Shown one piece after another: positions 29,222-47,994 of a stretch of DNA of 64,000 nucleotides. The position numbers and the translations under genes were made by a program. The DNA lies in contig JAJYNN010000002.1 in the NCBI GenBank assembly GCA_021786315.1, positions 462,997 to 526,996 on the forward strand, given 5' to 3'. Position 1 is the stretch's first letter. Each line of letters starts with the position of its first letter. This DNA comes from a bacterium (GTDB lineage: Bacteria; Patescibacteriota; Microgenomatia; Daviesbacterales; UBA10151). The notes beneath the pieces were generated by a model, which did no database searches, was not told the origin of the DNA, and worked only from the letters and a program-made list of their open reading frames with translations.

Positions 29222-30979
29222 TTATTTAATTTCCAGTGGCTGGTTTTGTGATAAACGCGAATAGACATAGGCCGTTTGGTCGGAAGGTGATAAAAGATAA
29301 GCCTGCCGGGCGGCCATTAATGCTTCATCCGTCTTTTTCAGATTATAGTCAGCTATGGTCAAAATTAACCAAAGCTTTGCATTGTACGGAAGGAGTTTAA
29401 GTGATTCTGTAGTAAAATCGCGGGCTTTCTGGTTGTCTTTATCCTGGAAAAGCAGAATATTGGCGTAGTTTTCATAAGCCAAGTAATATTGGCCGTTATC
29501 GATAGCCTTTTTGTAGTATTCCTTAGCTTTTTGGTAATCTCCCCTTCTTTCGGCAACTACCCCTAAATTATTCCAGTTAGTCCACCATTTTGGGGCCAGC
29601 TGGGCAGATTTTTCAAAATGGATGGCCGCTTCATCCATCTGCCCGTGTCTAAATAGCTCCACCCCGTAATTGTTTTCCAAATCAAAGCTGTTTTGGGAAA
29701 CCTTAATATCGTGGCCATATAAAGTTAAGCCGTCTTTCCAGTCGAAATTACGGATAAAAGTTCGTGCTGAGAGGGCGAGAATGATTACCAGGAGACAGGC
29801 GGTAAAAATTTTCAATTTCCAGGTACCAATTTTCAATGAATTTTCAATTTTGGAATTTGCAAAGATGGTGCCAGCCATACCTAGTAGCCCCACCATGGGA
29901 AGGTAAAACCAGCGGTCAGAATAAGTTAAGTCCAAGGGAAAAATTTGCAGATGCATCCCTAAGCCTGTTGTAAACCAGACAAAGAAAAATAAATAAGCTT
30001 TAAGGTCTTCACTTTTCTTTTTCCACAAAATTGCCGCAATTGATACTAAAATAACAAACAAGGTTAGATCCACCATTAGCGGCATCGTAAAGTTATTCCA
30101 GGTTAAGGATTTCACTGCCCAGTGCTGGTTAATGGCTAGATTCTTGGGAAAAACAAAAGTTTTAAGGTAGGAAAAAATTATTTTGGGGATGCTTAAAATC
30201 CGTTCCGAAAGCGGCATGACGGTAATCGGGGACAATCCGTGTTTATTAAAGAAGATCCCGGCCACCACAAACCTCAGGAATGAATATACCCCGGCTACGG
30301 TGCAAATAGCACCGATATACCGCAAAAGTTCGTGGCGCTTAAAGAATAAAAAGTAAGCTCCAATGATTATTATAAAACCAACCCCGGTTTCTTTGGAAAG
30401 TAACGAAGCAAGCAGCAGTCCGGTCAAAATTAACCACCTCTTGAGGCTGATAATCCCTTTTGTGGCATAATTTAATCCCAAAACGCCAAAGAAAAAGAAC
30501 AGGATATCCTGCAGGTCAGAGATATAAACAACGGTTTCGGTGTTTAGAGGATGAACTAAAAAAATTAACGCCAGGAAAAAGGATAAAGTCTCCTTTTTGA
30601 GAATGCGCTTAAGAATCAGGAAAACAATTACTGAACTTGCAAGGTGTATGGATACCTGGAGAAGGTGGAAAAAGAAGGCATTGGGGCCAAAAACTGTATA
30701 AATTAAGGAAAAGAAAACGGTCATTAGCGGCTTGTAATATAATCCCCCTAACGTACCTGAGCCGCCGCTGTTAAAGGTGCTTTCAGAAAAAAACTGGAAA
30801 ATATTGCCGATGGAGTGTACCGGTAAGTTGTTTAAAACCTGTTCCTCATCATCCCAGACAAAACCATTAAAAAGACTGTTAAAATAAAGAAGTAAACCGA
30901 TTACTATTAGTAGAATCACCCATTTATTTTTCATGAAAGCAGAGTTAACCTTAACAGTATAGCTTGTTTTGATAATCAA
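29222..30979 (-). CDS. GT-C-like polytopic membrane glycosyltransferase with C-terminal TPR repeats (TMTC/PMT-like)
   Basis: ~11 TMs; FVWDDEEQV first-loop acidic motif; C-terminal TPR repeats; an in-frame heptamer repeat insert. Confidence 0.55.
   Translation of the reverse strand: MIIKTSYTVKVNSAFMKNKWVILLIVIGLLLYFNSLFNGFVWDDEEQVLNNLPVHSIGNIFQFFSESTFNSGGSGTLGGLYYKPLMTVFFSLIYTVFGPNAFFFHLLQVSIHLASSVIVFLILKRILKKETLSFFLALIFLVHPLNTETVVYISDLQDILFFFFGVLGLNYATKGIISLKRWLILTGLLLASLLSKETGVGFIIIIGAYFLFFKRHELLRYIGAICTVAGVYSFLRFVVAGIFFNKHGLSPITVMPLSERILSIPKIIFSYLKTFVFPKNLAINQHWAVKSLTWNNFTMPLMVDLTLFVILVSIAAILWKKKSEDLKAYLFFFVWFTTGLGMHLQIFPLDLTYSDRWFYLPMVGLLGMAGTIFANSKIENSLKIGTWKLKIFTACLLVIILALSARTFIRNFDWKDGLTLYGHDIKVSQNSFDLENNYGVELFRHGQMDEAAIHFEKSAQLAPKWWTNWNNLGVVAERRGDYQKAKEYYKKAIDNGQYYLAYENYANILLFQDKDNQKARDFTTESLKLLPYNAKLWLILTIADYNLKKTDEALMAARQAYLLSPSDQTAYVYSRLSQNQPLEIK
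29806..29860. repeat. AATTTTC-type heptamer array inside the 29222..30979 coding sequence (in-frame)
   Basis: aaaattttcaatttccaggtaccaattttcaatgaattttcaattttggaatttgc. Confidence 0.5.
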
Positions 30980-30982
30980 TGT

Positions 30983-31735
30983 ATGAAGTATTTGAACGAA
31001 TATATCAAAGTTGCTCCCATGTCTCTCGCCTTCTGGCGGGTTCTTGAGGCTAATGCGCTTGGTAAAGTTAAACTCTCCCGTCCAATTCTAGATATCGGCT
31101 GTGGCTTTGGAGAGTTTTCCGGTGTCTTTTTTAAAAGTTTCGTTGAAGTGGGTGTTGATATTTCAGAGAGGGATTTATTGCTGGCGAAGGAAAAACAAAA
31201 ATATAAAAAATTAATTTTAGCAGATGCCCGGCAGCTACCTTTTCCTAACAATAAATTTAAAAGCGTAATCTCTATTAGCGTTCTGGAACATATCCCGGAA
31301 GTCGAAACGGTTTTTCCTGAAATCTTTCGAGTTTTACAGCCGGGAGGAATCTTTACTTTTACCGTTCCCACCTCAGTCCTCAATGACGCATTGATCTTGC
31401 CCCCGCCCCGCGGGTGGTGGTTAAAGGTTTACCACTGGTCTTTTAAACATAAAGTTATTTTACCGAAAAATACCTGGATTAACTGGTGTAAAAAAGCTGG
31501 ATTTGAAATCAAAGAGTCCTCAGGGACGATTTCCCGAAAACAATTACTTGCTTTTCAAGCAGGTCTCCCTTTGGCTTTACCATCGCAAATACATAGGTTG
31601 TTTTTTACCAAGAGATTAATAGTTTTAACTTCTTTCCGAAGATGGTTGCTAAGAAAAGTCATTTACATTTTAGGAGAGACTTCAACTCCATCAGATGCCA
31701 ACATCATTATTATCGCCCAAAAACCAAAATCATGA
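30983..31735 (+). CDS. Class I SAM-dependent methyltransferase
   Basis: ILDIGCGFGEF motif I and LQPGGIFTFTVP post-II motif. Confidence 0.7.
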   Translation: MKYLNEYIKVAPMSLAFWRVLEANALGKVKLSRPILDIGCGFGEFSGVFFKSFVEVGVDISERDLLLAKEKQKYKKLILADARQLPFPNNKFKSVISISVLEHIPEVETVFPEIFRVLQPGGIFTFTVPTSVLNDALILPPPRGWWLKVYHWSFKHKVILPKNTWINWCKKAGFEIKESSGTISRKQLLAFQAGLPLALPSQIHRLFFTKRLIVLTSFRRWLLRKVIYILGETSTPSDANIIIIAQKPKS

Positions 31736-32559
31736 CCCGTTGCCCTATTTGTTTATCCTCTAAATTTAAAAATATTTTCTCGACGAGAGCCTCTGCACGA
31801 AATAAAGGTAAATATCAAATTACCCAGTGTTGTAAATGCCATCTGGGGGTTTTGACACCCTCACTAAATGAAGAAGAATTAAAGCAAATTTACCAGGAGA
31901 ATTATTTTAAAGATGAGGCCCCGGTAGAAAATTCGGATGCGGCAGTTAAATTTCAGTTTGTTAGGAGACATCTACCGGCTGATTTTAAACTGCTTGATTT
32001 TGGGTGTGGGGTGGGGAACTTTTTGGGTATTTGCCAAAAAGAAGGTTTTTTTTGCCAAGGGTTTGATATGTCTGAATTTGCGGCAAAATATGTATCACAA
32101 AAATATAAGATACCTGTAAAGACTGGTAAACTACAAAAAGGATTGTTTCCTGCTAACTTTTTTGATGCAATAGTTGTCTTTGACGTTATTGAACATATCT
32201 CGGATTTTTCAGAAGCAATTCGATTATGGAACCTGTGGTTAAAAAAAGGAGGAACATTATTTATTACAACTCCAAACTTAGAAAGTTTAGATGCAAAAAT
32301 ATTAGGAAGATTTTGGTATGGTTATCAAAAAATACCACAACATCTTAATTATTTTAATCCTGATTCCATTAAAATTTTGTTAAATAGATATCATTTTGCC
32401 AATATCAAAATTAGGGGTTGGGGATTTAGCCGGAATTTAGAATTTTTTGCCCAAAAATTATTTCGCCGAAGTCATATACCTATACTTGGTGTACTTCTTA
32501 GAAGGATAAATGTTTTTTTCCCTATAGTTGATATGATGGTTATAGCCCAAAAAGACTAA
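31732..32559 (+). CDS. Class I SAM-dependent methyltransferase with N-terminal zinc ribbon; start reassigned to the ATG overlapping the upstream stop (ATGA)
   Basis: CPICLSSKF..CCKCHLGVL ribbon; LLDFGCGVGNFLG motif I; LKKGGTLFITTPN. Confidence 0.65.
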   Translation: MTRCPICLSSKFKNIFSTRASARNKGKYQITQCCKCHLGVLTPSLNEEELKQIYQENYFKDEAPVENSDAAVKFQFVRRHLPADFKLLDFGCGVGNFLGICQKEGFFCQGFDMSEFAAKYVSQKYKIPVKTGKLQKGLFPANFFDAIVVFDVIEHISDFSEAIRLWNLWLKKGGTLFITTPNLESLDAKILGRFWYGYQKIPQHLNYFNPDSIKILLNRYHFANIKIRGWGFSRNLEFFAQKLFRRSHIPILGVLLRRINVFFPIVDMMVIAQKD

Positions 32560-32560
32560 T

Positions 32561-34075
32561 ATGAAGTTCCTCGCACTTTTTCTGCTTATCGCTATAGCAA
32601 CTTCGTTCTCCTTAAGTTGGCTTTTAAACGATCCGCCTGTTTGGCCTGATGAAGCAATTTATGCGGATATAGCGGCAAATGTTTTAAACGAAAATAGATT
32701 AGGTACGAACCTTTGGCAAGGAACGATCCCGAATGTTGAACAGCATGCCTTCTGGTATCCTCCGGCTTTTTTCTATACGCTTTCTCTCTGGTTTAAAGTT
32801 ACAGGTTTCTCAATCGTTAGCCAGAGAACTCTGTCGGTTATTGTGGGGATTGGTTTTATATTGTTCTTCTACTTTGCGGGGAGAAATATTCTTGCCGGAA
32901 TGGGAAAGTATTCAAAAGTTTCTGATAGTTGGTTATTAATTTTCGTGATCGGGGCAATGATGGTAGATTTTATTTTCCAAAAAGCTAATCGAATCAGCCG
33001 TCCGGAGATTTTTGTGCTGTTTTGGGGGAGCTTGGCAACTCTATTTATGAGCAAATTATGGTTGGGTAAATCAACCAGGCTTAAGGAATACTTTTGGCTT
33101 GTACTTAGCGGTCTCTGTAGCGCTATGGCTTTTTTAAACCACACTATTGGAGCCTTCTTTTTTATTTTCTTACTAACCTCCCTTTTTATATATAACTCTT
33201 GGAGAGTCATTAAGTCATTTAAATTGTATTTATTTATACTCTCTTTCATACTTCCTCTGGTAATTTGGCTTATCAGCATTTTCCCTGATATTGCTATTCT
33301 TAAAGAACAGCTTTTTTTAGCAACGGTCAGGAAAAATCTGGAGGAGCCTTGGCTTTGGTCAGAGCTACTTAATCAAGGCTGGCTCCACCGGTTGATCTTA
33401 GCCAGTTATCTTACAATTACCTTTCTTTTCTTCCTGCTGTCTTTTAATCGCAGAAAGGAGCAACTACTCGTTTCAATAGGGCTAATTTTGTCTTGGGGCT
33501 TTTCCCTCTACGGCAAAATGGGATGGTACCTCGTTTTTCCTATCCCCTTTGTTTATTTGTCACTCCTGTTATTTTTAAAAAGAACATCTGCCAGATGGGA
33601 AGAAGGTAGATCGATCGGTAAAGAGTTATTTTTGTTTGCTGTTGCTGTAACTATAATCATCAGTGTACTAAACATAAACGTCAGTTATATCTCCAATATG
33701 AAATTTTTAGAGGATGACGAATACTCTTATGAAAGTTTTACTAAAGAGATACTGGAAAAAATCCCTGATCAAAAAACAGTATTTCTTTCAGCTATTCCTG
33801 ACCCTTACTTTGAATTTAAAAATCTCAAAAGATCAAACAGACTCTACGAGTTTCCTGTCTTACAAACTTCAAAAAAGAATTACCTTGATGTTTTAAATAA
33901 CACTGATTATATAATTTACAACGGCTCGTACGATTACTTGGTATTTGGAAATTTTTTACAAAGATATATTCTAAAAAATCAGTTACGGATCGAGAGAGTC
34001 GGGCATGCGAACCAATATGAGTTTTTAATTATTGAACTGAAGCCAAGAGACCAAAGGGATCAGTTACTTCAATGA
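32561..34075 (+). CDS. GT-C-like membrane glycosyltransferase (ArnT/PMT, GT39/GT83-like)
   Basis: PVWPDEAIYADIAANV resembles the ArnT/PMT first-loop DE..Y.EI motif; >10 TMs. Confidence 0.6.
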   Translation: MKFLALFLLIAIATSFSLSWLLNDPPVWPDEAIYADIAANVLNENRLGTNLWQGTIPNVEQHAFWYPPAFFYTLSLWFKVTGFSIVSQRTLSVIVGIGFILFFYFAGRNILAGMGKYSKVSDSWLLIFVIGAMMVDFIFQKANRISRPEIFVLFWGSLATLFMSKLWLGKSTRLKEYFWLVLSGLCSAMAFLNHTIGAFFFIFLLTSLFIYNSWRVIKSFKLYLFILSFILPLVIWLISIFPDIAILKEQLFLATVRKNLEEPWLWSELLNQGWLHRLILASYLTITFLFFLLSFNRRKEQLLVSIGLILSWGFSLYGKMGWYLVFPIPFVYLSLLLFLKRTSARWEEGRSIGKELFLFAVAVTIIISVLNINVSYISNMKFLEDDEYSYESFTKEILEKIPDQKTVFLSAIPDPYFEFKNLKRSNRLYEFPVLQTSKKNYLDVLNNTDYIIYNGSYDYLVFGNFLQRYILKNQLRIERVGHANQYEFLIIELKPRDQRDQLLQ

Positions 34076-35622
34076 CAATTTTTAAAAAACCATTATTAGG
34101 ATTAATTATAATTTGTTTGACGGCCGCTATATTCCGCTTGTTCTTTTTTAATCTAATTGAATTTAAGTATGACGAAGCATATACGGTTTTCCAAATGGAG
34201 CAGTTTTACATGCATCCTTACTTAATGCAGGTCGGTCCTCCCCAAAGCACGGGTGTTTACAACCCGCCTTTATTTAACTTCCTGATGATTATTTTATCTT
34301 TATTCTCCAGGAGCCCGCAGTATTTAAGCTTTTTGATTGCATTCATCAACGTAATCTTTGCAGGCATTTTTTATCTTGTGGTCAGGAAGTTTTATGGAAA
34401 ATTTACAGGGGTTATTGCCGGATTGCTTTTAGCCACTTCCCCCTGGAATATAGTCTTTTCCCGTAAAATTTGGATTCCTGACCTTTTAGGGCCGATGATG
34501 GTTATTGTTTTCTACTATCTCCATCAGGTGGTTTTGGCAAGGAAAGAAAAAGCCGTACTACCGCTGTTTATATTTTTAACTTTAATTCCCCAGATGCATG
34601 CTTCCGGGTTATTTTTTACCGCCGCTACTTTATTAATCTTTTTAATAACAAAAACAAAGCTTAATTTCAGGAAAGCTTTAATCGGAGTTGGTATCGGGTT
34701 AATTCCGGCAACGCCCTATATTATCCGCCAGCTTACATCTACCCCATTTTGTGTGGATTGCGTGGCATTTTTTACCTATCAGGGAGGAGCAAGGCCTTTT
34801 GACTTGGAAAACTTTCTCCGGCCGTTTAATTTCCTGGGTGGCTTTAATTTCCAAATTTTACTCGGTGAAAGCTACCCTGAATTTTTAAACGTACTTCCCT
34901 TCGGCAAAATTTTGTCTGTCCTATTTGTCGGTGAGATCTTATCTGTAATTGCCGCGGCATTTTGGATAGTTAAATCCCAAATAAAGTATCTGTTTCTTGT
35001 TTTGTATCTAGTTATCATCCCCATCCTCTACCTGGCAACTAAAACTCCAGCCTACATGCACTACTTTGTGGTTTTAAGCTTAATGGTTATCCTACTGCAG
35101 TCTCTCTTCTTTAAATCTATCCTAGAAGTCAAGAAGAACCAAACTACAATAGTTCTTATAGCAGCACTAATAGGCATTGTTCTGGCCGCTAACGTCATTT
35201 TTGAAATCTCATTGATCAAGTTCTTGTCATCAAAACAAAAAATTAACGGTGATTACGGTCCGGTTTTTTCTGTGACTCAAAATTACATTAAGGACCAAAC
35301 CGAAAGTTACCAAACTCTTCCTGATTATGGATTACTAAAAAGTTATTCCTATATGTTTGCCCAAACAAAGTTTTTACACCAAAAGTTAGGTGATTATTTT
35401 GCCCAAACCGGAAGAGCGGATTTGGCAATTTCAGAATTTCAAGAAGCATTGAATGAAAACAACAACGATAAATATTCCCGGGCCAACCTTGCCTATATTG
35501 ATATGCAGACAGGTAAACTTGATGATGCCAAAAAAGAGATCAACCTATTATCTGCCCAGGATTCGACCTTGTCTGCCAGGCTGCAAAATATACTGGATAA
35601 TATCAACAATAAAACCAAATGA
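34072..35622 (+). CDS. GT-C-like membrane glycosyltransferase with C-terminal TPR-like region
   Basis: Polytopic; KYDEAYTVFQM loop motif; TPR-like C-terminus; 4-nt overlap with the upstream gene. Confidence 0.5.
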   Translation: MTIFKKPLLGLIIICLTAAIFRLFFFNLIEFKYDEAYTVFQMEQFYMHPYLMQVGPPQSTGVYNPPLFNFLMIILSLFSRSPQYLSFLIAFINVIFAGIFYLVVRKFYGKFTGVIAGLLLATSPWNIVFSRKIWIPDLLGPMMVIVFYYLHQVVLARKEKAVLPLFIFLTLIPQMHASGLFFTAATLLIFLITKTKLNFRKALIGVGIGLIPATPYIIRQLTSTPFCVDCVAFFTYQGGARPFDLENFLRPFNFLGGFNFQILLGESYPEFLNVLPFGKILSVLFVGEILSVIAAAFWIVKSQIKYLFLVLYLVIIPILYLATKTPAYMHYFVVLSLMVILLQSLFFKSILEVKKNQTTIVLIAALIGIVLAANVIFEISLIKFLSSKQKINGDYGPVFSVTQNYIKDQTESYQTLPDYGLLKSYSYMFAQTKFLHQKLGDYFAQTGRADLAISEFQEALNENNNDKYSRANLAYIDMQTGKLDDAKKEINLLSAQDSTLSARLQNILDNINNKTK

Positions 35623-37640
35623 AAGATAAAATTTTAATCGTAATTTTGGGCTTCATTTTTACTGCCGTTTTTAGCTGGCCGTTTATTACTAAACTGCCGG
35701 CTTTCTCTTACGATCGGGGGGATTACCAGCTAACCGGCGGGGCGCTGTCTTATAACGAATATAGTATCCGCACCGGAAGGATTTTTAACCGCCAAGAATA
35801 CTTTAATGGTTACCAGTTTTATCCGCAGCCTGATACCTTAGTATATTCTGACCTGCGACTGGTTCCTTCCTTGATTTATTCTCCCATCTATTGGCTTACC
35901 CACAACTTTATTTTTTCCGTCAATACAACTACTTTTTTGACTTTTGTCCTAAGTTTTATTTCCGGTTTCTACTTTCTTTACTTTTTTACCAAACACAAAT
36001 TGGCCAGCATTGTTGGTGCCTTAGTTTTTACCTTCAACCCTTTAACCTACTCCCGTTTCCCGGAACACTTTGAGCTTCTGAATAAATACTTCCTGCCCCT
36101 GGTATTTCTCTTTGCCTTTAAATTTTTCACTAAGCCGAACTTTAAAAATGCCGTCTTTTTCTTTTTATTCCTGACCCTTAATGCTTTTTCGGCCACTTAC
36201 TTTCAGCTTTTTTCTTTCTTGATTCTGCCCGTTTTTGCCTTACCTTTTGTGGTCCAAAATTTCCGGCAAAAGCATTTTGAATATTTTGGCAATCTAATTA
36301 AGTTTAGTTTGGTTTTTATTATATTTATTCCGGTCTTTTGGTACTTTGACAGCGCTTATACCAACTTTTCCAGCCTGGAAAACTCCAGGAGAACAATTAC
36401 TGAAACCTCCTTTCTCTCTGCCCGACTGATCGATTACTTTGCCTCAACGCCAAATAATTTCTTATACGGGCCGTTTGTTAAAAGCATTGAGGAATTCCGC
36501 GCTCCCTTGGATCTGCAGGGGATCTACGGCAATTTTAATTACCAGGAACATACATTGTTCCTCAATATTATTCCGATGGTTTTGTTTATTCTTGGGGCAG
36601 GTGCGTGGTATCAAAGATTTAAGAGAAAAGAACTTCCTAAAACAGAGAAAACCTTATTTGTAAGTTTTTCTGTTGTTTTGGTTTCCACCTTTCTTCTTAG
36701 TTTCGGGCCTTATTTTGAGGGCTGGAACCTGAACGAGAGCAGCTTTCCTCTGCCCTACTATCTTCTCTATAAATTCATTCCTTTCCTGGAAGGCATCAGA
36801 GCTCCTACTAGAATCCTCTTTGTTTTTTACCTCCCCTTCTCCTTATTTACCGCCTATGGGGCCATCAAACTGTTAAGAAGCGGGAAAAGGAAAACAATGA
36901 TTATTTTTGGTGTAATCCTCGCCCTTTTATGGCTGGAAAATTTTACACCCGAACCTCAGGGTAAGTCATATGATACTCAATCCGCGGTTACTCCCCAGAT
37001 AGAATCGAGAATCGCTAAATTGGAGTTTTTACAAGACAAGAATACCCTGCATTTGCCTGTTATAGCACCTTCGGGGGATATAGAGAGTATCTATCTCCCT
37101 TGGGCTGCCGAAACCCACGAGAGGATTGTTAACGGCAACCGGGGCAGTTTCTTATCGGGCGAGCAGGGAGCGTTTTTAAAGGAGCTCAGTGAGAAACTGG
37201 ATGAAGATGAAATAAAAAAACTCCTCGCTTTAAAGGTCAATTATATTGTTTTCCATAAGGATCTTCTCGGAAAAGACTTTGGGGTTTACGGAAAATGGCA
37301 AAACCTGTACCAAAAAGGGGAAATTTATGAAGACAAGGAGATAATGGTGGTGGACTTATCGAAATACAATCTGGCTTTTACTATCTGTGATTTTAATAAG
37401 GATTTTGATGTCAGTGCAAAACAAGCCCAAATAAGAGAGGGCGGGCAAACTTTTTATGTTGTAGAGCTGAAGAATAAATCTGATTGTTACTACCCGGCAA
37501 TTTACCGCGATAAGTATAAAGAGGTTGATTTTTATATTAACCTGATTAAGCATATGGCTTTGATTAAACTCCCGCCGGTAATAGAACCAAACCAGACACT
37601 AACCTTTGCTGAAGTTTATAATAACTTAAGATGGAAATAG
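35619..37640 (+). CDS. Large polytopic membrane protein (YfhO/GT-C-like), putative glycosyltransferase
   Basis: ~13 TMs then a soluble C-terminal domain; operon overlap. Confidence 0.45.
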   Translation: MKDKILIVILGFIFTAVFSWPFITKLPAFSYDRGDYQLTGGALSYNEYSIRTGRIFNRQEYFNGYQFYPQPDTLVYSDLRLVPSLIYSPIYWLTHNFIFSVNTTTFLTFVLSFISGFYFLYFFTKHKLASIVGALVFTFNPLTYSRFPEHFELLNKYFLPLVFLFAFKFFTKPNFKNAVFFFLFLTLNAFSATYFQLFSFLILPVFALPFVVQNFRQKHFEYFGNLIKFSLVFIIFIPVFWYFDSAYTNFSSLENSRRTITETSFLSARLIDYFASTPNNFLYGPFVKSIEEFRAPLDLQGIYGNFNYQEHTLFLNIIPMVLFILGAGAWYQRFKRKELPKTEKTLFVSFSVVLVSTFLLSFGPYFEGWNLNESSFPLPYYLLYKFIPFLEGIRAPTRILFVFYLPFSLFTAYGAIKLLRSGKRKTMIIFGVILALLWLENFTPEPQGKSYDTQSAVTPQIESRIAKLEFLQDKNTLHLPVIAPSGDIESIYLPWAAETHERIVNGNRGSFLSGEQGAFLKELSEKLDEDEIKKLLALKVNYIVFHKDLLGKDFGVYGKWQNLYQKGEIYEDKEIMVVDLSKYNLAFTICDFNKDFDVSAKQAQIREGGQTFYVVELKNKSDCYYPAIYRDKYKEVDFYINLIKHMALIKLPPVIEPNQTLTFAEVYNNLRWK

Positions 37641-37647
37641 ACAAATT

Positions 37648-39138: not shown

Positions 39139-39140
39139 AG

Positions 39141-40634
39141 TTATTTTCTTTCCGACAGTGGCTTTAGTTTGGCAACGACAACCGAATATCCGTTTTGCTG
39201 GCCAACTAACACCTTCTCGGTGACATTCTTATTAATATAATCAGCCAGGATTTGATGTGGAATCCAGGTAAAAATTATATAGTCAGTTGAGTCTAAAACC
39301 TTCTTATATTTCACCGGATCAATGGGGAAATAGGGATCAGCAGTTTCATAAAACCTTAAGTTGGGATTATTTTTTAAATCAAAATATGGATCCGGTGTGG
39401 CTGATATAAATATCCCGGCCTTTTTATCCGGAGGGATCTCTTTCATCAGGTAATTTTCAATTGCGGCAGTATACTGATGATAGCTGTAACTACTTGTGCT
39501 CCAAAGAGACCTTTTACCGGAATCGGTTATTGCCAAATTGTCGTTGTTAAAAAACTGAATATTTAGATTAGCGATAACCAAAAGCAGGGGAACAATAAAT
39601 ATAACATTGGGAAGGTCATTTTTTATAAACCCGGCAGTTGCTAAAACTGATACCAACGCCAAAATTAGGAATGGCTGAAAGTAAAGCATATATCCCCCCT
39701 CTTTGGCCAGAAGTGAAAAAACAGCTGATACGGTTAAAGCAATGAACAAGGTCCGCAGCTTTTCATCAGCGCGGTTTTGAACAAAGCGGAACAAAAAGAT
39801 TAGGGCAATTGCAAACTCCATGGTTAGAAGAAAACGCCAGGATAAATCAGAGCTCCAGAGGACAAAAGCGAAAGGAGGCTTCAGACTTTTATCATGAAAG
39901 TGAGTCAGGAGGCTTTGGGCAAGCGGGAGGATTTGCTGCTGGTTGGTAAGAAACCATAGGAATATTCCTCCGGCAACAGGCAATCCGGCAAAGATTAAGC
40001 GGTAAAACTTCTTTTTTACGGAAGTATTCTGGAAAATAATTATCAGGAGAAGTATCAGCGGGACCATTGTTCCGGTGGGGTGAGTGAGTGCTGCCAGGGC
40101 AGCGAAGGTCCCCGGTATCAGGTAAAAAGAGAGCCTCTTTTTTGACTGGGCCAAAATAGCAGTCCAAAAACAGAGCATCATAAACAAAAGCATCTGCATT
40201 TCCATCCTCCCTAAGTGAGATGCCCGGGTAAAATTAATATTTAAAGAAAGAAGTAATGTTCCCAGAAAGGCCCAAGAGTGCCGTTTGAATATACGTTTGG
40301 CAGTGAGATAAAACACCGCTAAGGTGATGATGGCCAGAAATAAAGAAAAAGCCCGCAAAACTTCAATGCTTTGTCCAAAGAGGCCAATCCACCCGGACAT
40401 AAGATAAAAGTAAAGCGGCGGGTATCCAAGTTGGGTTTTTTCCAGGTCGGGGAAGATACCTCCGTAGATATTGGTAGAGATAGCTCCATGGATTAAGAGG
40501 TTGTCCGCCATCTGGTAAAAGACCGGTTCATCCGGCCAGACCGGCGGGTCTTTGAGGAAGAAAAGGTGGTTGACAAAAAGGAAAGGCAGAAGGGCCAGGG
40601 AGATGAAGATGAAGTACCGCCAGAAAACTTTCAT
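39141..40634 (-). CDS. GT-C-like membrane glycosyltransferase (paralogue of 32561..34075)
   Basis: PVWPDEPVFYQMADNLL, the same loop motif as the paralogue. Confidence 0.6.
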   Translation of the reverse strand: MKVFWRYFIFISLALLPFLFVNHLFFLKDPPVWPDEPVFYQMADNLLIHGAISTNIYGGIFPDLEKTQLGYPPLYFYLMSGWIGLFGQSIEVLRAFSLFLAIITLAVFYLTAKRIFKRHSWAFLGTLLLSLNINFTRASHLGRMEMQMLLFMMLCFWTAILAQSKKRLSFYLIPGTFAALAALTHPTGTMVPLILLLIIIFQNTSVKKKFYRLIFAGLPVAGGIFLWFLTNQQQILPLAQSLLTHFHDKSLKPPFAFVLWSSDLSWRFLLTMEFAIALIFLFRFVQNRADEKLRTLFIALTVSAVFSLLAKEGGYMLYFQPFLILALVSVLATAGFIKNDLPNVIFIVPLLLVIANLNIQFFNNDNLAITDSGKRSLWSTSSYSYHQYTAAIENYLMKEIPPDKKAGIFISATPDPYFDLKNNPNLRFYETADPYFPIDPVKYKKVLDSTDYIIFTWIPHQILADYINKNVTEKVLVGQQNGYSVVVAKLKPLSERK

Positions 40635-40641
40635 TTCCTCT

Positions 40642-42450
40642 TCATTTTACCTGATAAAGGGCATCAAAAAACATCCGCTGAATCGGGTGTCGTTTGTGGA
40701 GTTTTAAAAGCTTCCAAACATTCGGAATAGGATACTCATTTCTTTTAATATTGGAGTTGTCAGTAGTACGGGATTTTCGCCACTGTTTGGTATAAAACAT
40801 GCCGCGAGTTAGCCGGTCAATTTGCCTTAAATAGTTATCTATCTGTGGGCGGGTCATCTCATGAAGGGAGCTGATATTCAAAAACAGGTCAAAACTTTTA
40901 TCCGGCAGATATTCCATTTGTTGCGGCATTAAAAACCTAATACGGGCCGATTCAAATTCCCTTTTGATCTCCTTATAGGAAGCAAAAGGCCGGAAGCGGA
41001 AAATTTTTTCCCGGGGGTAAAGTTGGCTTAAATACTCCTGGGAGATAAACAATGCCGGGGGAATATCGATGATTGTGTATTTTGCCTTTGGTTTCGCCTG
41101 CAGAAAAGCATAACTAAGCCTACCGTAACCTGCTCCCAGCTCGGCAATATTTTTAGCCCCTCCTCTGCCTTTGGCAGAGTAGAATTCATAAACGGAGTTG
41201 CAAAGATCCTGGGAGATAACTTTTCCTTTATATCTGATAGCATACGGGTCTCCCAGCAGTGGTTCCTCTAATTTGTGCAGAAGTTTTAATTTATCGATGC
41301 GGGAAACATAATCGTAAAGATAAGCAACGGAGATGCGGTAGATGAAGCTGCTTACCAGGTTAAATCTTTGGATACCTGTTTGCGCCGTCGGTTTAATATT
41401 GTGACTTCTGAAAATGGGTGACAAGCTGCCTCTTACAAGCTCGCTAAAAATAGGTAATAGCTGCTGGGCTAAGATTTCCCAGGTTACCCAGTTAAAATAC
41501 TGGGTGTTTACCGAGCGCTTAAAGCCGATAAGACCCGAGGTTATCAGGTTGCGCGTGTGGCTGCGGTTTAGCTTTTTCCAAAAAGCTGAGGGTTGGTAGA
41601 TAGGAGGAGCTTGTTTAAGATGTTCTGCCATCGTTTTTAGCTCCTGCTGTTTGTCTTTGGACAACCCCAAAGAAGCACGCTCTTTGGCAGTTGTTTGATC
41701 TTTCCTTAGATATATCTTTCGGGTTTGGGCGACAAACCAAATTTTCCAGATGTAGAAAAAGATCAACACCGCCCATTTGGCTTGATCCAGAAAAGTCTCA
41801 GTAATGGATGACTTTCCTACCCGTCTGCGAAAATTGACCGGGATTTCAATAAACTTTACATTATTTTTTGCCGCCACAAGAACCCACTCAGTAATAAAGA
41901 TAGCTCCGTCGGACTGACATTCCTTAACAACTTTGTCCCAACCCCGGCGGTTAGTAAGCCTGAGGATACACCCAACATCGGTCAACCGGCTGCATAAGAA
42001 AAGGGTATTGATCAACCTGCCAAACAAAAAATCGAGCATCCGGCGGATAAAATGCATTGAGGCTCCCTTCTCAATCATTGAATAGTGGGTGCGGGTGGCA
42101 AAAACGGTATCAAAATCCTCACTGTAGGATAGAAGTTTGGCGACATCCTTACCGGAAAAGGTGCCGTCCGGCTCGGCAATAATCAGAAGTTCTGCTTTAG
42201 TAGAGGCAATACCTTTACGGATAGCGCTGCCTACTCCCTGGCGTGCTTCTTTGACCAGTTTTGCCCGGGTCTTCTGCACCTCTTTTTCAGTGCCTGTTTC
42301 GGCATTGTTATCAACTACAATGATCTCGTCGATGTATCCAGAGGCATCAAATTCGCGGATAGCTTTGTAGATTGAGCCTTTTTCTCTAAAGGTGGGGAAA
42401 ATTACAGCTACCTTTTTACCTTTCCACATAATATGCCCCGATTCTACCAT
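40642..42450 (-). CDS. GT2 polyprenyl-phospho-sugar synthase-like glycosyltransferase fused to a C-terminal SAM-methyltransferase-like domain
   Basis: N-terminus VAVIFPTFREKGSIYKAI..VVDNNAETG..AEPDG (DPM1/GtrB-like) plus TM anchor; C-terminus has AELGAGYGRLSYAF (E.G.G.G motif I). Confidence 0.7.
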   Translation of the reverse strand: MVESGHIMWKGKKVAVIFPTFREKGSIYKAIREFDASGYIDEIIVVDNNAETGTEKEVQKTRAKLVKEARQGVGSAIRKGIASTKAELLIIAEPDGTFSGKDVAKLLSYSEDFDTVFATRTHYSMIEKGASMHFIRRMLDFLFGRLINTLFLCSRLTDVGCILRLTNRRGWDKVVKECQSDGAIFITEWVLVAAKNNVKFIEIPVNFRRRVGKSSITETFLDQAKWAVLIFFYIWKIWFVAQTRKIYLRKDQTTAKERASLGLSKDKQQELKTMAEHLKQAPPIYQPSAFWKKLNRSHTRNLITSGLIGFKRSVNTQYFNWVTWEILAQQLLPIFSELVRGSLSPIFRSHNIKPTAQTGIQRFNLVSSFIYRISVAYLYDYVSRIDKLKLLHKLEEPLLGDPYAIRYKGKVISQDLCNSVYEFYSAKGRGGAKNIAELGAGYGRLSYAFLQAKPKAKYTIIDIPPALFISQEYLSQLYPREKIFRFRPFASYKEIKREFESARIRFLMPQQMEYLPDKSFDLFLNISSLHEMTRPQIDNYLRQIDRLTRGMFYTKQWRKSRTTDNSNIKRNEYPIPNVWKLLKLHKRHPIQRMFFDALYQVK

Positions 42451-42473
42451 ATGTATTTCTTATTTTTAGACAT

Positions 42474-43394
42474 TTGTGTAAGATCAGTGATATGAAAAGC
42501 GCTTGTAGACTTTGCGGAAGTGGAAACATTGCCAGTTTAAGCAAAAGCATGGATTATTCCCAATGCGGTGATTGTCAATTTGTCTGGAGTAAAAAAAGCC
42601 AAAATGTACACTACAATGCGGACTATTACCAAGGACGATCTTCACTTCTTTCAGCTGTCTTTTGCCTCATCTTTAACTTCTTCTATTGGCTCAGACGACA
42701 GTATGTAGGTGATAAGAAATATAAACTGTGGATTGATGTTGGGGCTGGTGACGGAGCTTTTCTAAAAACTGTAAAAGCAGACAAGCGAATTGGAGTGGAG
42801 ATCTCTTCCTCAGGAAGACAGATGATGCAGGATTTAGGACTAGATGTCCTCTCAGATAAGGAATTTCTAAAAAAATCCTGCTTTAAAGCCGATGTGATCT
42901 CTTTTTGGCATGTGTTGGAACATACCTCGGATCCGGAGAGTTATATCCAAGCCGCCAAACAAAACTTAGCCCCAACAGGCAAACTTGTTATTGGTGTTCC
43001 CAATATCAGCAGTTGGGAGTTTAAGCTGTTTGGCAAAAAGTGGTTTCACTATGCCCACCCTTACCATCAAAGGCACTTTTCTCCCAGTTCTCTTGGTTTT
43101 CTGCTGCAAAAAAATGGATTTCGAGTTAAGAAGAAGGATTACTTTTCTCCTGAGCATCATTTTTCCGGATTGTTGCAGTCATTTATTAACTGGCGGTCCG
43201 ACTCCAAGGATGTGTTGCATAAGCTAACCAAAAGAAGTTCGGAACAGTTTACGGGGATGAGTTTTGCCAACTGGCTTTGGGTATTATTTTGGATAAGTTT
43301 AGGACTTCCTTTAGTAGCTGCCTTCTGGGTTTTTGCTTCTTTGACTGGGCGCCCCGGAGCATTTGTGGTGGTAGCTACCCTTAAAAAACGTTAA
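42474..43394 (+). CDS. Class I SAM-dependent methyltransferase with N-terminal zinc ribbon and C-terminal TM
   Basis: CRLCGSGN..CGDCQFVW; WIDVGAGDGAFL motif I; LAPTGKLVIGVPN. Confidence 0.65.
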   Translation: MCKISDMKSACRLCGSGNIASLSKSMDYSQCGDCQFVWSKKSQNVHYNADYYQGRSSLLSAVFCLIFNFFYWLRRQYVGDKKYKLWIDVGAGDGAFLKTVKADKRIGVEISSSGRQMMQDLGLDVLSDKEFLKKSCFKADVISFWHVLEHTSDPESYIQAAKQNLAPTGKLVIGVPNISSWEFKLFGKKWFHYAHPYHQRHFSPSSLGFLLQKNGFRVKKKDYFSPEHHFSGLLQSFINWRSDSKDVLHKLTKRSSEQFTGMSFANWLWVLFWISLGLPLVAAFWVFASLTGRPGAFVVVATLKKR

Positions 43395-44944
43395 TCTTTG
43401 GAATAGATAATTAGATCTTTGCTTTGGAAAACCGGTTTTAAGAAAGAATACCCTAAGACCTTTGCTTGTGGGTTTTGGCCCAATTGTTTTTCTTCTTCGC
43501 CCCAAACTATGTAGGTAATATCTGCCTGATCCAAAAATCTTTTCGCGCTTTCCGTAGAAACTTTTTGAGAATAAAAAGCTGCCAGATTTTGAATTTTTTC
43601 TGAAGCATGGGGAGTCTGTAATAAATGGCCAAAATACACTCTTGCTTTTGTATTAGCAGGTATATAGTTTCCTAAAGTATATCCGCTTAAAACCCCGGCA
43701 TTGTCTTTATCGGCCAGATAGTCTAGAGCGTTTTTTTCGTCAATACTTAAATAAAACCAATGGTTGTCCTTTTTAACCTCCTGAATCCGTTCACTAAACA
43801 TAAAAAAGCTGGAAATAGATGTTAACACCAGAAACAATCCTATCAATATTTTTAAAGGCAATTTGGAAGTTTTAGAAATCTGGTCTAAAGCGAAGACAGA
43901 GAGAATAATTCCCGGGAAAAATAACCCTCTCAAATAAAATCGGGCAAATCCCAGGGGAATAAAGGCTAAAATTATACTTGTTATGAACCAAACATTCAGG
44001 AACATAACCCCCTCCCCTTTTGGCTTTTTTATGAACTGATAGATTAACAACGGGGTTAATACTCCATAGCCCGAGATAATCTGAAAGATATTAGGTGTGG
44101 TTAGATTTTGGGAAAGTACGCCGGAAAAACCATTATTCCCTTTTAAACTGAGGAAATAAGCCCAAAAGACAATTACTGCTGGTGTAAAGATAAGTAAAAA
44201 ATTGAAGAAAGGCTTTTTTTCTCCATCACGGAAATACAGGATTAGGGAATAAAGACCGGCTATAATGGCAAAACTCGCCAGGTAATAGGGGTAAAAAATG
44301 ACCAGAAAGCCAAGAGAAATAAGAGAAAAAACAAGCCATTTTCTTGTCTCCTCTTTTGTCGCTAAATAGAAGCTAACTAAAGATAGAAGATAAAAAATGA
44401 TTCCAAAGGCTTCATGGGGACGCTGGAATTGGCTGGCAAAAGTAAATCCGGTGATATAAAGGTCCGAGGATTGGAAATTAGGAAAAAATAACCATCCCAC
44501 TCCTCCACCCAGGGCAATGGCGATAGTTGCCATCAGTGAAATAAAACGGGCTTTTAAAAAGATCCTGCACAAAAACCAAAGTGTAACAAGCAGGATAAAA
44601 CCTGAGATAATTGCTGCCAGGTGAAAAAGTAACTGCGGTGAAGTTTGGGGAAACGCAAATCCTGTCAGTGTATAGACAGGATACATCAGCACTGAAGGAT
44701 GCGTTTGGGCAGTGTAGGTATTTTGCAGCAGTAGTCCGTGTCCTTGCCCCCACCTGATTGCTGCCACGTAAACATTGATATCCCAGGGGTCAAACCAGGA
44801 AGCCTGACCGGAAAAACTCTTTCCGGAAGGAGTGTTTTGCCAAGCGTAATAATCAGGAAAATGATAAACAAAAAGTATGGAGATGGATAATAGGAGAAGG
44901 GCAATAATTGTAAATATCTGTTTTTGTTTCATAACTACCACCAA
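43391..44944 (-). CDS. Polytopic membrane protein, putative GT-C glycosyltransferase
   Basis: ~12 TMs; part of the same island. Confidence 0.45.
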   Translation of the reverse strand: MVVVMKQKQIFTIIALLLLSISILFVYHFPDYYAWQNTPSGKSFSGQASWFDPWDINVYVAAIRWGQGHGLLLQNTYTAQTHPSVLMYPVYTLTGFAFPQTSPQLLFHLAAIISGFILLVTLWFLCRIFLKARFISLMATIAIALGGGVGWLFFPNFQSSDLYITGFTFASQFQRPHEAFGIIFYLLSLVSFYLATKEETRKWLVFSLISLGFLVIFYPYYLASFAIIAGLYSLILYFRDGEKKPFFNFLLIFTPAVIVFWAYFLSLKGNNGFSGVLSQNLTTPNIFQIISGYGVLTPLLIYQFIKKPKGEGVMFLNVWFITSIILAFIPLGFARFYLRGLFFPGIILSVFALDQISKTSKLPLKILIGLFLVLTSISSFFMFSERIQEVKKDNHWFYLSIDEKNALDYLADKDNAGVLSGYTLGNYIPANTKARVYFGHLLQTPHASEKIQNLAAFYSQKVSTESAKRFLDQADITYIVWGEEEKQLGQNPQAKVLGYSFLKPVFQSKDLIIYSKD

Positions 44945-46683
44945 TAAGGATTTTTCGATTTTTCCAGGTATTTTTGGATAGTTGGCGGGACAAAAATACT
45001 GTTTTGGGTATTAGCTAAGTTAGCCATTACCAGGTTTCCAACCGGAGAATCAGGAAAAAGGCTTAAGGCTTTTTCATCGAAAGCTTTAGCGCTGTTTAGA
45101 TTTTCCGTATTAAAGAGAAAGATGCTTGTTCTAAGGTATGACAAGTGGTTATCAAAAGAATAATCATCAGGTTTAATTTGGTCGAGGTCGATTGCTTTTA
45201 ACCCCAGTCTTTGGGCCGCCTCATCTTTTACTAAAATAATCATAAAATCATCCAGATAGACAACTTTCCACCTCGGATCTTTGGTGATAAAACTAAAGAA
45301 GGTTTTGGCCCAGGGAGTTTGGTCGGTGTGAGAGAAGATGATGGTTTGGAAATTATAATGTTTGTCCGCCTCGGCAAAATTTTCCGGAGACTCCTGCATG
45401 GGTATATAAATTTTTTGGAAAAAGCTGGCAGGATAGGCTTCCGGACGGCCGTCAACAAAGACTTTATACCGGGGGAATCCCCGGTAAATAATATAACTCC
45501 CAATATCAAAATTATTAAAAATTGGTTGGGGCAAGTTGTGGTCTAAAACAAAGTCCATCGCTTTCTGAACTTGGGCGCGATATTCAATTTTAGGTAAAGT
45601 GTTTTTATCACTATACCTATAGTAATCGCCGTCCAGGTAAATGAAGCTTTCAAAAAGCAAGATTGCAATAGTCAGCCCTGCTATGGATATAGTAATCCAT
45701 GATTTTTTAATGGTACCAAAATTTAAAACTGCGGCGGGTAAAGTAATTAAAGCTAAGTAGGGAAAACTACGGACATTAGCTAAGGCTAGTATTATTCCGG
45801 CAGAAACAAGTAAAGAATTTTTAAGGGAAAAGTTACGGCGGACTAAAGAAACTGCCAAAGAGATTACGGCGATTAAAATTGAGAGTTTGACGAATAAATA
45901 ATCCGGATCCTTAAAATTTAAGCTTTCCAGAAGGAACATACTCTGGTTCTCGGCAATGGTATAACCATAATTCCCAAACACCTGTAACGGATAAATGAGT
46001 CCCTTAAATGTATTTGGGTTGAGTAAACTTACAAGCGGCGACAGTAAACAAACACCAAGCAGGATTTTAAAACGGGAAAAATCTTTTTTGGAAAGAAAAT
46101 GGACAAGGAAAATCCCCTGCAAAATAAACCCAACCGGGAAATAAATATGAGTATTGACCCAGAGAAATTGGATTACCGGCAAAATATAGACTAATTTCGA
46201 CTTGGTATTTTCAAATCTTGTAAGAATAAAGTATGTAAGTGCTGTAAAAAGGAAACTTAATATTTCCGGCCTGAGCTCTACCCTATCCCTTAACGTGTGC
46301 AAAAAGATAAATCCAATAGGCAACACCAAAAGGTAACTTGACCTGGGGATAACAGACAAAACCAACCCTAAAGAAACAAGCAAAAGGGCAATTTTTATCC
46401 ACAGGATTGCACCTAGCCCAATTGATTGTTTTCCGTAAAATAATAAAATCTCAAATAAATAATGGTGGTTGATAAAAGGAAAATCCGGATTTGTATAGGA
46501 AAAAAGATTTGTTTTGGGGACTTGTCCGGTGGTGGCAATTATTTCACCAAGTTTAATGTGCCTGCCTAAATCCTGGTCAAAAGAAAAATCGGTCCGGAAG
46601 GAAAAAGAGAAAACAAAAAAGAGTAACAGGATTATTGCTAAAGGGATCCTTTTAAGGGAAGCTGCCATACAACGATTGTACAA
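44935..46683 (-). CDS. Polytopic membrane protein, putative GT-C glycosyltransferase
   Basis: ~12 TMs plus a soluble C-terminal domain. Confidence 0.45.
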   Translation of the reverse strand: MYNRCMAASLKRIPLAIILLLFFVFSFSFRTDFSFDQDLGRHIKLGEIIATTGQVPKTNLFSYTNPDFPFINHHYLFEILLFYGKQSIGLGAILWIKIALLLVSLGLVLSVIPRSSYLLVLPIGFIFLHTLRDRVELRPEILSFLFTALTYFILTRFENTKSKLVYILPVIQFLWVNTHIYFPVGFILQGIFLVHFLSKKDFSRFKILLGVCLLSPLVSLLNPNTFKGLIYPLQVFGNYGYTIAENQSMFLLESLNFKDPDYLFVKLSILIAVISLAVSLVRRNFSLKNSLLVSAGIILALANVRSFPYLALITLPAAVLNFGTIKKSWITISIAGLTIAILLFESFIYLDGDYYRYSDKNTLPKIEYRAQVQKAMDFVLDHNLPQPIFNNFDIGSYIIYRGFPRYKVFVDGRPEAYPASFFQKIYIPMQESPENFAEADKHYNFQTIIFSHTDQTPWAKTFFSFITKDPRWKVVYLDDFMIILVKDEAAQRLGLKAIDLDQIKPDDYSFDNHLSYLRTSIFLFNTENLNSAKAFDEKALSLFPDSPVGNLVMANLANTQNSIFVPPTIQKYLEKSKNPYWW

Positions 46684-47947: not shown

Positions 47948-47994
47948 TAAACCATTTTAACAGTGGTCAAATTTAATGACTAGAGTTGGGTTAG

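Follow-up and report, generated by a model that had tools for sequence, protein, structure and literature searches.

An island of GT-C-type membrane enzymes in a Daviesbacteria genome that probably serves glycosylation at the outer face of the membrane

A stretch of 64,000 nucleotides from a bacterium of the Daviesbacterales (contig JAJYNN010000002.1, positions 462,997 to 526,996, here called the window, with positions counted from its first letter) carries at 29222-46683 an island of 12 open reading frames (ORFs) with hardly any spacer between genes. As had been predicted from the sequence, the island encodes eight polytopic membrane proteins of 496-673 aa each (M1-M8), together with three class I methyltransferases (MT1-MT3) and one fusion of a family 2 glycosyltransferase (GT2) with a methyltransferase. 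The evidence, which differs in strength from protein to protein, supports the placing of all eight membrane proteins in the GT-C superfamily, and the island is thought, with a probability of about 0.6, to be a modular outer-face glycosylation system that runs on lipid-linked monosaccharide donors. Surface-glycosylation systems of this type are known, and this one would be unusually large and put together partly from undescribed enzyme families. The genes of the island are:

29222-30979 (ORF), minus strand: M1, 585 aa, TMTC-like GT-C protein with a PMT_2-type membrane domain and C-terminal tetratricopeptide repeats (TPRs)
30983-31735, plus strand: MT1, soluble class I S-adenosylmethionine (SAM) methyltransferase (Methyltransf_11, Methyltransf_25)
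31732-32559, plus strand: MT2, zinc-ribbon, class I methyltransferase (Methyltransf_23) and C-terminal hydrophobic helix
32561-34075, plus strand: M2, 504 aa, PMT_2-like GT-C protein, paralogue of M6
34072-35622, plus strand: M3, 516 aa, GT-C protein with PMT_2 and C-terminal TPRs
35619-37640, plus strand: M4, 673 aa, GT-C-like protein of a family labelled DUF6311, with a 229-aa C-terminal domain
37648-39138, plus strand: M5, 496 aa, predicted GT-C fold, family without a Pfam assignment
39141-40634, minus strand: M6, 497 aa, GT-C protein of the PMT_2 family
40642-42450, minus strand: GT2-methyltransferase fusion, 602 aa, probable polyprenyl-phosphate-hexose synthase with a NanM-type sugar O-methyltransferase
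42492-43394, plus strand: MT3, zinc-ribbon, class I methyltransferase (Methyltransf_23) and C-terminal hydrophobic helix
43391-44944 (ORF), minus strand: M7, 517 aa, GT-C-like, family without a Pfam assignment
44935-46683, minus strand: M8, 582 aa, predicted GT-C fold with a TPR-like tail, Microgenomates core protein without a Pfam family

For M1, M2, M3 and M6 the assignment to GT-C comes from Pfam and from profile comparison. In the Pfam assignment that the original prediction had proposed as a check, M6 (56.4 bits, E 5e-15) and M3 (27.6 bits) score above the PMT_2 gathering threshold of 26.1 bits, with M1 (24.0 bits) and M2 (20.1 bits) below it, the PMT match of M2 being likewise sub-threshold. 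M4, M5, M7 and M8 match nothing in Pfam or NCBIfam and their single-sequence searches of PDB chains gave nothing significant, therefore homologue alignments and profile comparison were used for these four. Profile searches of PDB chains with the M4, M7, M8 and M2/M6 families also gave nothing significant, except for a weak match of M7 to AglB-S2 that is discussed below.

The membrane proteins had been described as eight paralogues, a description that does not hold, as all-vs-all BLASTP of the eight links M2 to M6 (28% identity, E 4e-42) and M3 weakly to M6 (E 4e-4), with no other pair being detectable. Only M2 and M6 can be recognised as paralogues, and the eight form at least five sequence families that are related at superfamily level only. 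At that level it is the profile comparisons with hhalign that join them, with M1, M2, M3 and M6 interlinked at 91-100% (M1 to M3 96%, M1 to M6 95%, M2 to M6 100%) and M7 reaching 97.7% to M6 in one comparison and 96.1% to the M2/M6 profile in a second. The M4 and M7 families are linked at 92% and 94.3% over 426-463 collinear columns, M4 having weaker links to M1 (83%) and M6 (74%). The links of M5 are weak (52-66%), and the membrane part of M8 has no profile link to any of the other seven. As controls, three membrane-protein families without relation to the eight were chosen from genes nearby; these reached at most 2.9% against any of M1-M8, thus the profile links are not an artefact of hydrophobicity.

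A topology check by hydropathy gives one common plan for all eight proteins, in which a first transmembrane helix (TM1) is followed by a first loop of ~50-80 aa that is poor in Lys and Arg, then by a polytopic core and, at the C-terminus, by a soluble domain of ~100-230 aa; the hydropathy script used serves for overall layout only, not for helix counts. Loop composition and the models described below make it likely that the N-terminus is cytoplasmic and that the first loop and the C-terminal domain are external, as the first loops are K/R-poor and the C-terminal domain of M5 has majority-conserved cysteines. Directly after TM1 an acidic motif is conserved, invariant or nearly so, in the alignment of every family: WDD in M1, PDE in M2 and M6, YDE in M3, GDY in M4, EE in M5, DPWD in M7 and DQD-LGRH in M8. 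The first-loop motifs that had been quoted for the island are indeed there, PVWPDEAIYADIA being that of M2 and PVWPDEPVFYQMA that of M6, and the PDE within this family is invariant. In M3 the motif is conserved as KYDE in a four-sequence alignment, in M4 it is D35 that is near-invariant and in M5 the pair E39-E40. The DPWD of M7 is invariant, with D51 matched in the profile alignment to the D in the DE motif of M6, and in M8 the whole of SFDQDLGRH is invariant, including R36 and H37.

Some of the eight carry a further domain behind the membrane part. In M1 these are TPRs (TPR_2/TPR_12, E 2e-13) and in M3 they are TPR_19 repeats (E 3e-7), the two that had been predicted; that count was too low, as the tail of M8 is also TPR-like, with 87.5% hhalign probability to the TPR region of M1 over 105 columns and Foldseek matches to designed TPR proteins. 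There are thus three TPR-bearing enzymes, M1, M3 and M8. Eukaryotic TMTC proteins are characterised by a PMT-like membrane domain and a DUF1736 loop, together with a DD motif in the first external loop, a KET(Q)xxT motif and C-terminal TPRs (PMC7801869), and the invariant DD of M1 after TM1 (GFVWDD) and its SKET(G) motif match the DD and KET-type motifs described there. Profiles of the isolated C-terminal domains are not significantly alike, except for M2 with M6 and for the TPR tails, those of M1, M3 and M8, and on this ground one STT3-like C-terminal domain common to all eight was not upheld and is kept as a lead.

For the two proteins with the weakest profile links, M5 and M8, there are confident structure models. 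The AlphaFold2 model of M5 (predicted local distance difference score, pLDDT, 94.9; predicted template-modelling score, pTM, 0.93) and that of M8 (pLDDT 88.3, pTM 0.88) are both consistent with about 11 TM helices. In Foldseek searches of the PDB the top 20 matches of M5 are all of GT-C type, the best being STT3A (E 8e-5), and further matches include ArnT, AftB (E 5e-4), yeast STT3, ALG3, ALG9, PIG-U, Pmt4 (TM-score 0.53) and AftA. The list for M8 is led by the C-mannosyltransferase DPY19 (E 2e-5, TM-score 0.52), followed by AglB, STT3, ArnT and PglB at E up to 0.02, with PimE far lower (E 0.25). The matches of the two models to STT3, ArnT, AftB, DPY19, AglB and Pmt4 have a Foldseek probability of 1.0 and TM-scores of 0.45-0.53, and all significant PDB matches are GT-C enzymes.

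It is at this point that a quite different identity has to be weighed, namely that the membrane proteins are inactive scaffolds or else serve as transporters, O-antigen ligases or polymerases. In favour of this, sequence searches of Pfam, NCBIfam and the PDB found no match for four of them. The original prediction had itself named a transporter or O-antigen ligase or polymerase identity as the finding that would count against it, and the searches came out negative, with no transporter, Wzy or O-antigen-ligase signal in the family searches of M1-M8 or the fold searches of M5 and M8. The GT-C fold matches of M5 and M8 lie at E 1e-5 to 1e-2 with TM-scores of ~0.45-0.53, in contrast to transporters which appear at E>0.5 only with TM-scores of 0.1-0.2, and no O-antigen ligase or polymerase structure is among the matches listed for either model. 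Pfam gives no Wzy_C match at E<=0.1 for any of the eight, and within each family the acidic residues of the first loop vary little or not at all. This alternative is largely refuted and can be regarded as extremely improbable.

M7 and M4 are placed in GT-C by profile comparison. For M7 no Pfam domain is found in any of the 120 homologues listed. Its residues 397-486 weakly match the C-terminal domain of AglB-S2 (profile, E 0.03; PDB 3vu0, which we take to be the AglB-S2 entry), and the same weak alignment places GVLSGYTLGNYIP on the AglB-S2 signature VLSWWDYGNWI, in register with WWDYG. Entry 3VU0 is cited in a paper on the C-terminal domains of A. fulgidus AglB. The motif WWDYG itself is absent, the aligned position in M7 reading SGYTLGN and M8 having NNFDIGS, the latter within an invariant NNFDIGSY...DGRPE that is placed like the AglB-aligned segment of M7. 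An STT3-like C-terminal motif in M7 and M8 is an idea to be followed and not a finding. It does bear on the possibility that there are one or more oligosaccharyltransferase-like enzymes in the set, with M5, M7 and M8 the foremost candidates, which would move a preassembled oligosaccharide en bloc from a polyprenyl-diphosphate carrier as STT3, AglB and PglB do, and the high rank of these three enzymes in the fold searches points the same way. The monosaccharide-donor enzymes DPY19, ArnT and Pmt4 match as well or better, however, none of M1-M8 has an STT3 Pfam match, the isolated C-terminal domains are unlike each other across families as noted, and the island is without an initiating phosphoglycosyltransferase, a Wzx flippase or a set of cytoplasmic glycosyltransferases for a lipid-linked oligosaccharide. 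Transfer of this kind is considered very unlikely.

M4 and many of its homologues bear the precomputed label PF19830 (DUF6311), which was not reproduced by hmmscan of 35 members of the M4 alignment even at E<=1; one of the 35 matches PMT_2 at 1.5e-4. Nothing on DUF6311 was found in the literature, and the NCBI-named homologues of M4, M7 and M8 among the matches listed are called "hypothetical proteins". M4, M5, M7 and M8 appear to be four GT-C families without a usable Pfam model that are essentially confined to Patescibacteria.

The nearest homologues of the island proteins are found in Candidatus Daviesbacteria, of the Microgenomates group within the candidate phyla radiation (CPR), and related loci show which parts of the island belong together:

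L081 (a further Daviesbacteria genome): all eight membrane genes in unchanged order with the deacetylase flank, without MT1 and MT2; the GT2 bears an MT3-type domain, and a B12-binding radical-SAM enzyme is in the place of MT3
L082 (Blackburnbacteria): M3-M4-M5, a GHMP kinase, a 242-aa GT2, M7, a YfhO-family GT-C, a second M3-like gene and an NTP-transferase
L084: a TMEM260_N-TPR protein, three M5-like genes, M4, MT1, an M3-like gene and a Wzy_C-TPR protein
L086: BacA, a Methyltransf_13/14 enzyme, GT2, a carbamoyltransferase, M6 and M4

The Blackburnbacteria locus L082, with its six GT-C genes if that of the YfhO family is included, would appear to encode the full route from sugar activation to GT-C. 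Among Daviesbacteria genomes the interval from M8 to M1 varies from one to ten genes, there being only M2 between them in one (L012) and M3-M2 (L042), M7-M4-M3 (L047) or M7-M2-M3-M2' (L031) in others. Because the interposed genes differ between related genomes, M8 and M1 can be seen as the frame of a variable cassette, and for the same reason its product is probably a strain-variable surface glycan. M8 itself has a wider distribution, with >1000 homologues and a mean column identity of 56% in a 31-sequence alignment, and it occurs singly amid unrelated housekeeping genes in about 70 out of 80 genomes. Its usual neighbours are Fic, an S41 peptidase, a TerC-like protein and RuvABC, which were discarded as a clue to function, being unrelated housekeeping genes across the 80 genomes. 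M8 is a conserved Microgenomates core gene, the adjacency of which to the island is lineage-specific.

The supply of a donor to these enzymes is thought to start with the GT2-methyltransferase fusion, in which the GT2 module extends over residues ~8-238, a hydrophobic helix over ~222-243 and a NanM-type O-methyltransferase over 283-556. Residues 16-133 of the 602 match Glycos_transf_2 above the Pfam cutoff. The leading NCBIfam matches of the GT2 domain, all below cutoff, are AglJ (63 bits), PpgS and a dolichyl-phosphate (Dol-P) hexose transferase, and weaker GT2-family matches (E 1e-5 and above) come after those three. The L086 orthologue, which is a stand-alone protein (249 aa, 68% identity), matches no families but these three at E<=1e-5, and among PDB sequences the module comes closest to the Dol-P-mannose synthase of Pyrococcus (5mlz, E 1.7e-3). 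The GT2 module is a probable polyprenyl-phosphate-hexose synthase going by these matches, with the donor synthesis resting on resemblance because no score comes near the cutoff of the family concerned. Between the GT2 and methyltransferase domains lies an aromatic-rich hydrophobic stretch, WAVLIFFYIWKIWFVA, at residues ~225-241, which stays under the hydropathy threshold of 1.6; stand-alone GT2 orthologues (236-249 aa), the shortest of these being that of L087 (236 aa, 52% identity), stop just past it.

Together with MT1-MT3 the second half of the fusion gives the four methyltransferase domains that had been predicted. It matches TIGR04371, the NanM-type family of putative sugar O-methyltransferases, with 138 bits against a cutoff of 44. 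The three separate enzymes were confirmed as interleaved class I methyltransferases by generic Pfam matches: MT1 matches Methyltransf_11 (75 bits) and also Methyltransf_25 without a specific NCBIfam assignment, MT2 matches Methyltransf_23 with 87 bits and MT3 with 70 bits. In both MT2 and MT3 a zinc-ribbon-like CxxC...CxxC is found at the N-terminus and a hydrophobic helix at the C-terminus (for MT2 at residues 284-302 of its long ORF), features that, judged from the sequence, would suit work at the membrane. A homologue of MT1 (55% identity) follows the M4 gene in L084.

Whether these enzymes methylate sugars may be questioned, as they could act outside the glycosylation pathway on lipid, quinone-like or protein substrates and be present simply through the compactness of the genome. 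The NCBIfam matches of MT1 and MT2 are of generic types (BioC, UbiG, UbiE, ArsM) and far below cutoff, and MT3 has none. Yet the GT2-fused domain is well over the cutoff of a sugar O-methyltransferase family, and the L081 version of this GT2 module (66% identity) has a homologue of MT3 (43% identity) fused to its C-terminus in place of a NanM-type domain. Methyl- or carbamoyl-transferases also accompany the GT2 module in L086 and L084. Since the fusion partners of the GT2 recur yet interchange, methylation is taken to be coupled to the lipid-sugar step, and a role of the methyltransferases outside the pathway is judged improbable. A metagenome scan with the GT2-methyltransferase fusion found two loci only.

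The mechanism that is proposed for the glycosylation system has four steps. At the cytoplasmic face the GT2 module would, by family resemblance, load polyprenyl phosphate with a hexose taken from a nucleotide sugar. The NanM-type domain and MT1, MT2 and MT3 would then, going by the gene fusions, methylate the sugar before flipping, the substrate being either the nucleotide sugar or the lipid-linked sugar. A flippase encoded outside the island would turn the donor outward, where the eight GT-C enzymes would pass the (methyl)hexose to different acceptors or to different positions. In this last step the fold and the acidic motif are demonstrated by alignments and models, and the use of the donor and the chemistry are what we infer. 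ArnD and DprE1/E2 are precedents for enzymes that modify a monosaccharide while it is linked to a lipid. In the literature searched, no described precedent was found for a lipid-linked donor that is methylated before transfer. A GalU-like gene is also present in the window (13726-14607). The GH26 (mannanase-family) domains encoded nearby hint at mannose chemistry and prove nothing.

A number of points weigh against this reading. No flippase of the GtrA, ArnE/F, MATE or Wzx type is encoded in the island, and none was recognised among the small multi-TM ORFs of the 64-kb window. The AglJ scores of the GT2 module (63-76 bits) are to be compared with a cutoff of 325 bits for AglJ and of 325-375 bits over the three leading families. 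Should the hydrophobic stretch of the fusion cross the membrane, its methyltransferase would lie on the outer side, where SAM is lacking, and the signatures of MT1-MT3 are generic, leaving room for substrates other than sugars. The GT-C assignment of M4 and M7 rests on profile comparisons (92-98%), and M8 may serve a separate pathway because it is unlinked to the island in most genomes. The glycosylation logic as a whole is supported by computation. Of that logic as originally predicted, the GT-C identity of the membrane proteins, the resemblance of the GT2 to lipid-phosphate-sugar synthases and a link to methylation through the fusions have stood, all by computation, and the flippase has not been located in the island. 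The only small multi-TM protein nearby, with four TM helices (21468-21845, plus strand), is a member of the Phage_holin_4_2 family that also occurs within a few kb of the island in L081 (3825-4163), and there was no sign of flippase function in it.

As to the acceptors, TPR tails in M1, M3 and M8 and structural neighbours of the DPY19, STT3 and PMT type suggest that at least some of the enzymes act on proteins. The three TPR-bearing enzymes would most likely act on secreted or membrane proteins, as TMTC and PMT do, with Ser/Thr/Pro-rich linkers as plausible targets, and the remaining five may lengthen the resulting glycans or add sugars to a wall polymer; part of the set may have a wall-polymer function of the kind seen in lipomannan and lipoarabinomannan assembly. 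A search for linker-bearing proteins in the window, as the original prediction had suggested, turned up three that are predicted to be secreted. These candidate acceptors are a GH26 protein (26229-27449), a cohesin-domain protein (54790-55710) and a NAGPA phosphodiester glycosidase (60421-61389), the linkers of which have 20-23 Ser, Thr or Pro residues per 30-residue window.

It may be, on the other hand, that proteins are not acceptors at all and that the eight GT-C enzymes act one after another in the synthesis of one extracytoplasmic glycopolymer, a lipoglycan or wall polysaccharide. The model for this would be the lipomannan, lipoarabinomannan and arabinogalactan of mycobacteria, in which many GT-C enzymes use polyprenyl-phosphate sugars, and many distinct GT-C enzymes per donor synthase would suit the stepwise assembly of a polymer. 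The model of M5 matches AftB, AftA, ALG3 and ALG9 in addition to STT3, and PimE is present, although low, in the list for M8. The surroundings fit as well, with a polysaccharide deacetylase beside the island both here and in L081, a Wzy_C-TPR protein in the related locus L084, and a processive GT2-GH26 fusion and a second GH26 protein 2-8 kb upstream. Three of the eight enzymes have TPR domains like the protein O-mannosyltransferases TMTC, however, and the best structural matches of M8 and M5 are the protein glycosyltransferases DPY19, STT3 and AglB. It is also apparent that cassette genes are lost singly between genomes, which is easier to reconcile with independent decorations than with an obligatory assembly line. 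A single glycopolymer is regarded as unlikely overall, if still a serious possibility.

The modular glycosylation system proposed here resembles several known systems without being identical to any. Gtr-type three-component systems consist of a polyprenyl-phosphate-sugar synthase (GtrB, ArnC, PPPRS), a flippase and a GT-C transferase (PMC11127046). The island shares with these a lipid-phosphate-sugar-synthase-like GT2 encoded beside GT-C genes and auxiliary sugar-modifying enzymes in the locus; it differs in pairing one synthase with eight GT-C enzymes and not one, in having no flippase gene, in the fusion of methyltransferase domains to the synthase and in its host, a monoderm-type CPR bacterium with a genome of ~0.94 Mb. 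Streptococcal GtrB/PgtC2 glucosylates Ser/Thr-rich regions (PMC11092751), and it and PgfS/PgfM1, each an undecaprenyl-phosphate-sugar synthase with a GT-C acting on Ser/Thr-rich linkers, find a parallel in the three window proteins with similar linkers. Unlike in streptococci, the linker proteins here are candidate acceptors, the GT-C set is far larger and more diverse, and the methylation modules have no counterpart there.

The likeness of M1 to TMTC1-4 (GT105) and PMT (GT39) lies in its PMT_2-like domain, strictly conserved DD, KET-like motif and TPRs, and M2, M3 and M6 have a DE-type motif as PMT enzymes do. In contrast to TMTC and PMT, M1 gives no DUF1736 match at E<=0.1, M1 and M2 are sub-threshold for PMT_2, there are no MIR domains and the context is bacterial. 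The number of distinct GT-C enzymes recalls the mycobacterial and corynebacterial enzymes of lipomannan, lipoarabinomannan and arabinogalactan synthesis (PimE, MptA-C, EmbA-C, AftA-D), which use polyprenyl-phosphate mannose or arabinose and to some of which M5 and M8 have the structural matches given above, but the island proteins are not members of these families at sequence level, come from another lineage, include TPR domains and lie in a variable cassette. Finally, DPY19 (GT98) and STT3/AglB/PglB (GT66) give the best structural matches of M8 and M5 and have the same order of a GT-C domain and then an external C-terminal domain, although no Pfam or other sequence-level match connects them to the island proteins, identity is 11-14% and the WWDYG motif is replaced.

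The small size of the genome that had been predicted was borne out, as identical proteins are found on a contig of 942,606 bp. With about 1.9% of a ~0.94-Mb genome in one locus, selection on surface glycans would therefore seem to be strong. Hardly any work has been done on the cell surface of CPR/Patescibacteria, through which the dependence of these bacteria on other cells must be mediated, and no relevant literature was found that links Patescibacteria or the candidate phyla radiation with GT-C enzymes or mannosyltransferases. The locus provides high-confidence models for two GT-C families that are not in Pfam (M5, M8) and profile links for M4 and M7, the synthase-methyltransferase fusion suggests that lipid-linked monosaccharide donors may be methylated before transfer, and the variable cassette between M8 and M1 offers a handle on surface-glycan diversification in uncultivated bacteria. 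A further and tentative reading, which goes beyond this and is less likely to be right than wrong, is that M5, M7 and M8, with M4/DUF6311, found new GT-C families essentially confined to Patescibacteria, that M8 is a highly conserved enzyme present in nearly all Microgenomates, akin in fold to DPY19 and STT3, and performs a core protein glycosylation of a chemistry undescribed in bacteria, and that M8-M1 is a hypervariable surface-glycan locus with methylated polyprenyl-phosphate-hexose donors supplied by the synthase-methyltransferase fusion. If this were the case, the cassette would set strain-specific surface identity, for example in host attachment or phage evasion in episymbiont-like cells.

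The genes of the island fall into five blocks defined by strand, M1 (minus), MT1-MT2-M2-M3-M4-M5 (plus), the GT2-methyltransferase fusion then M6 (minus), MT3 (plus), and M8 then M7 (minus). The predicted four-nucleotide ATGA overlaps occur at three junctions, MT1/MT2 (31732), M2/M3 (34072) and M3/M4 (35619); the convergent genes M5 and M6 are 2 nt apart and the convergent genes MT3 and M7 overlap by 4 nt at their 3' ends. Promoter-like sites (48 vs 42.6±6.7) and terminator-like sites (18 vs 22.7±5.5) are no commoner than in shuffled sequence. The GC content is 0.35-0.39 in the region of 30-38 kb compared with 0.42-0.46 in the flanks, where a Crp/Fnr-type regulator (28533-29219) lies to the left and the polysaccharide deacetylase (47027-47947) to the right. 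Database gene calls differ at some starts, with M1 called as 570 aa from 30934, M7 as 513 aa (43391-44932) and M8, in one database call, as 577 aa. M6 has a clustered NCBI/ENA gene call of 352 aa, against 497 aa in the ORF and in the Logan call, and the public annotation of M6 probably truncates the N-terminus, where the catalytic DE motif sits.

Other features of the window also relate to the cell envelope. Upstream of the island an 882-aa protein (21842-24490, minus strand) is made up of a processive GT2 (Glyco_trans_2_3) and a GH26 domain, and the second GH26 protein, that with the Ser/Thr/Pro-rich linker at 26229-27449, is also on the minus strand. Between the two GH26 genes lie those of an extracytoplasmic function (ECF) sigma factor and a DUF5667 protein (24572-26088, minus strand). 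This GT2-GH26 group may be a separate unit for the synthesis and remodelling of a polysaccharide, possibly mannan-like. A MurT/GatD-like pair for peptidoglycan amidation (9147-11291, minus strand), two sortases (49383-50024, plus strand, and 61437-62042, minus strand) and an L,D-transpeptidase (55831-56316, plus strand) are consistent with a Gram-positive-type envelope. There are 13 tRNA genes in the window (7436-15811 and 47994-54788), six of them in a run at 12941-13676. A 579-aa protein (52695-54434, plus strand) has a signal-peptide-like N-terminus and no Pfam match, and a 161-aa protein (20281-20766, minus strand) consists almost entirely of repeated zinc-ribbon motifs.

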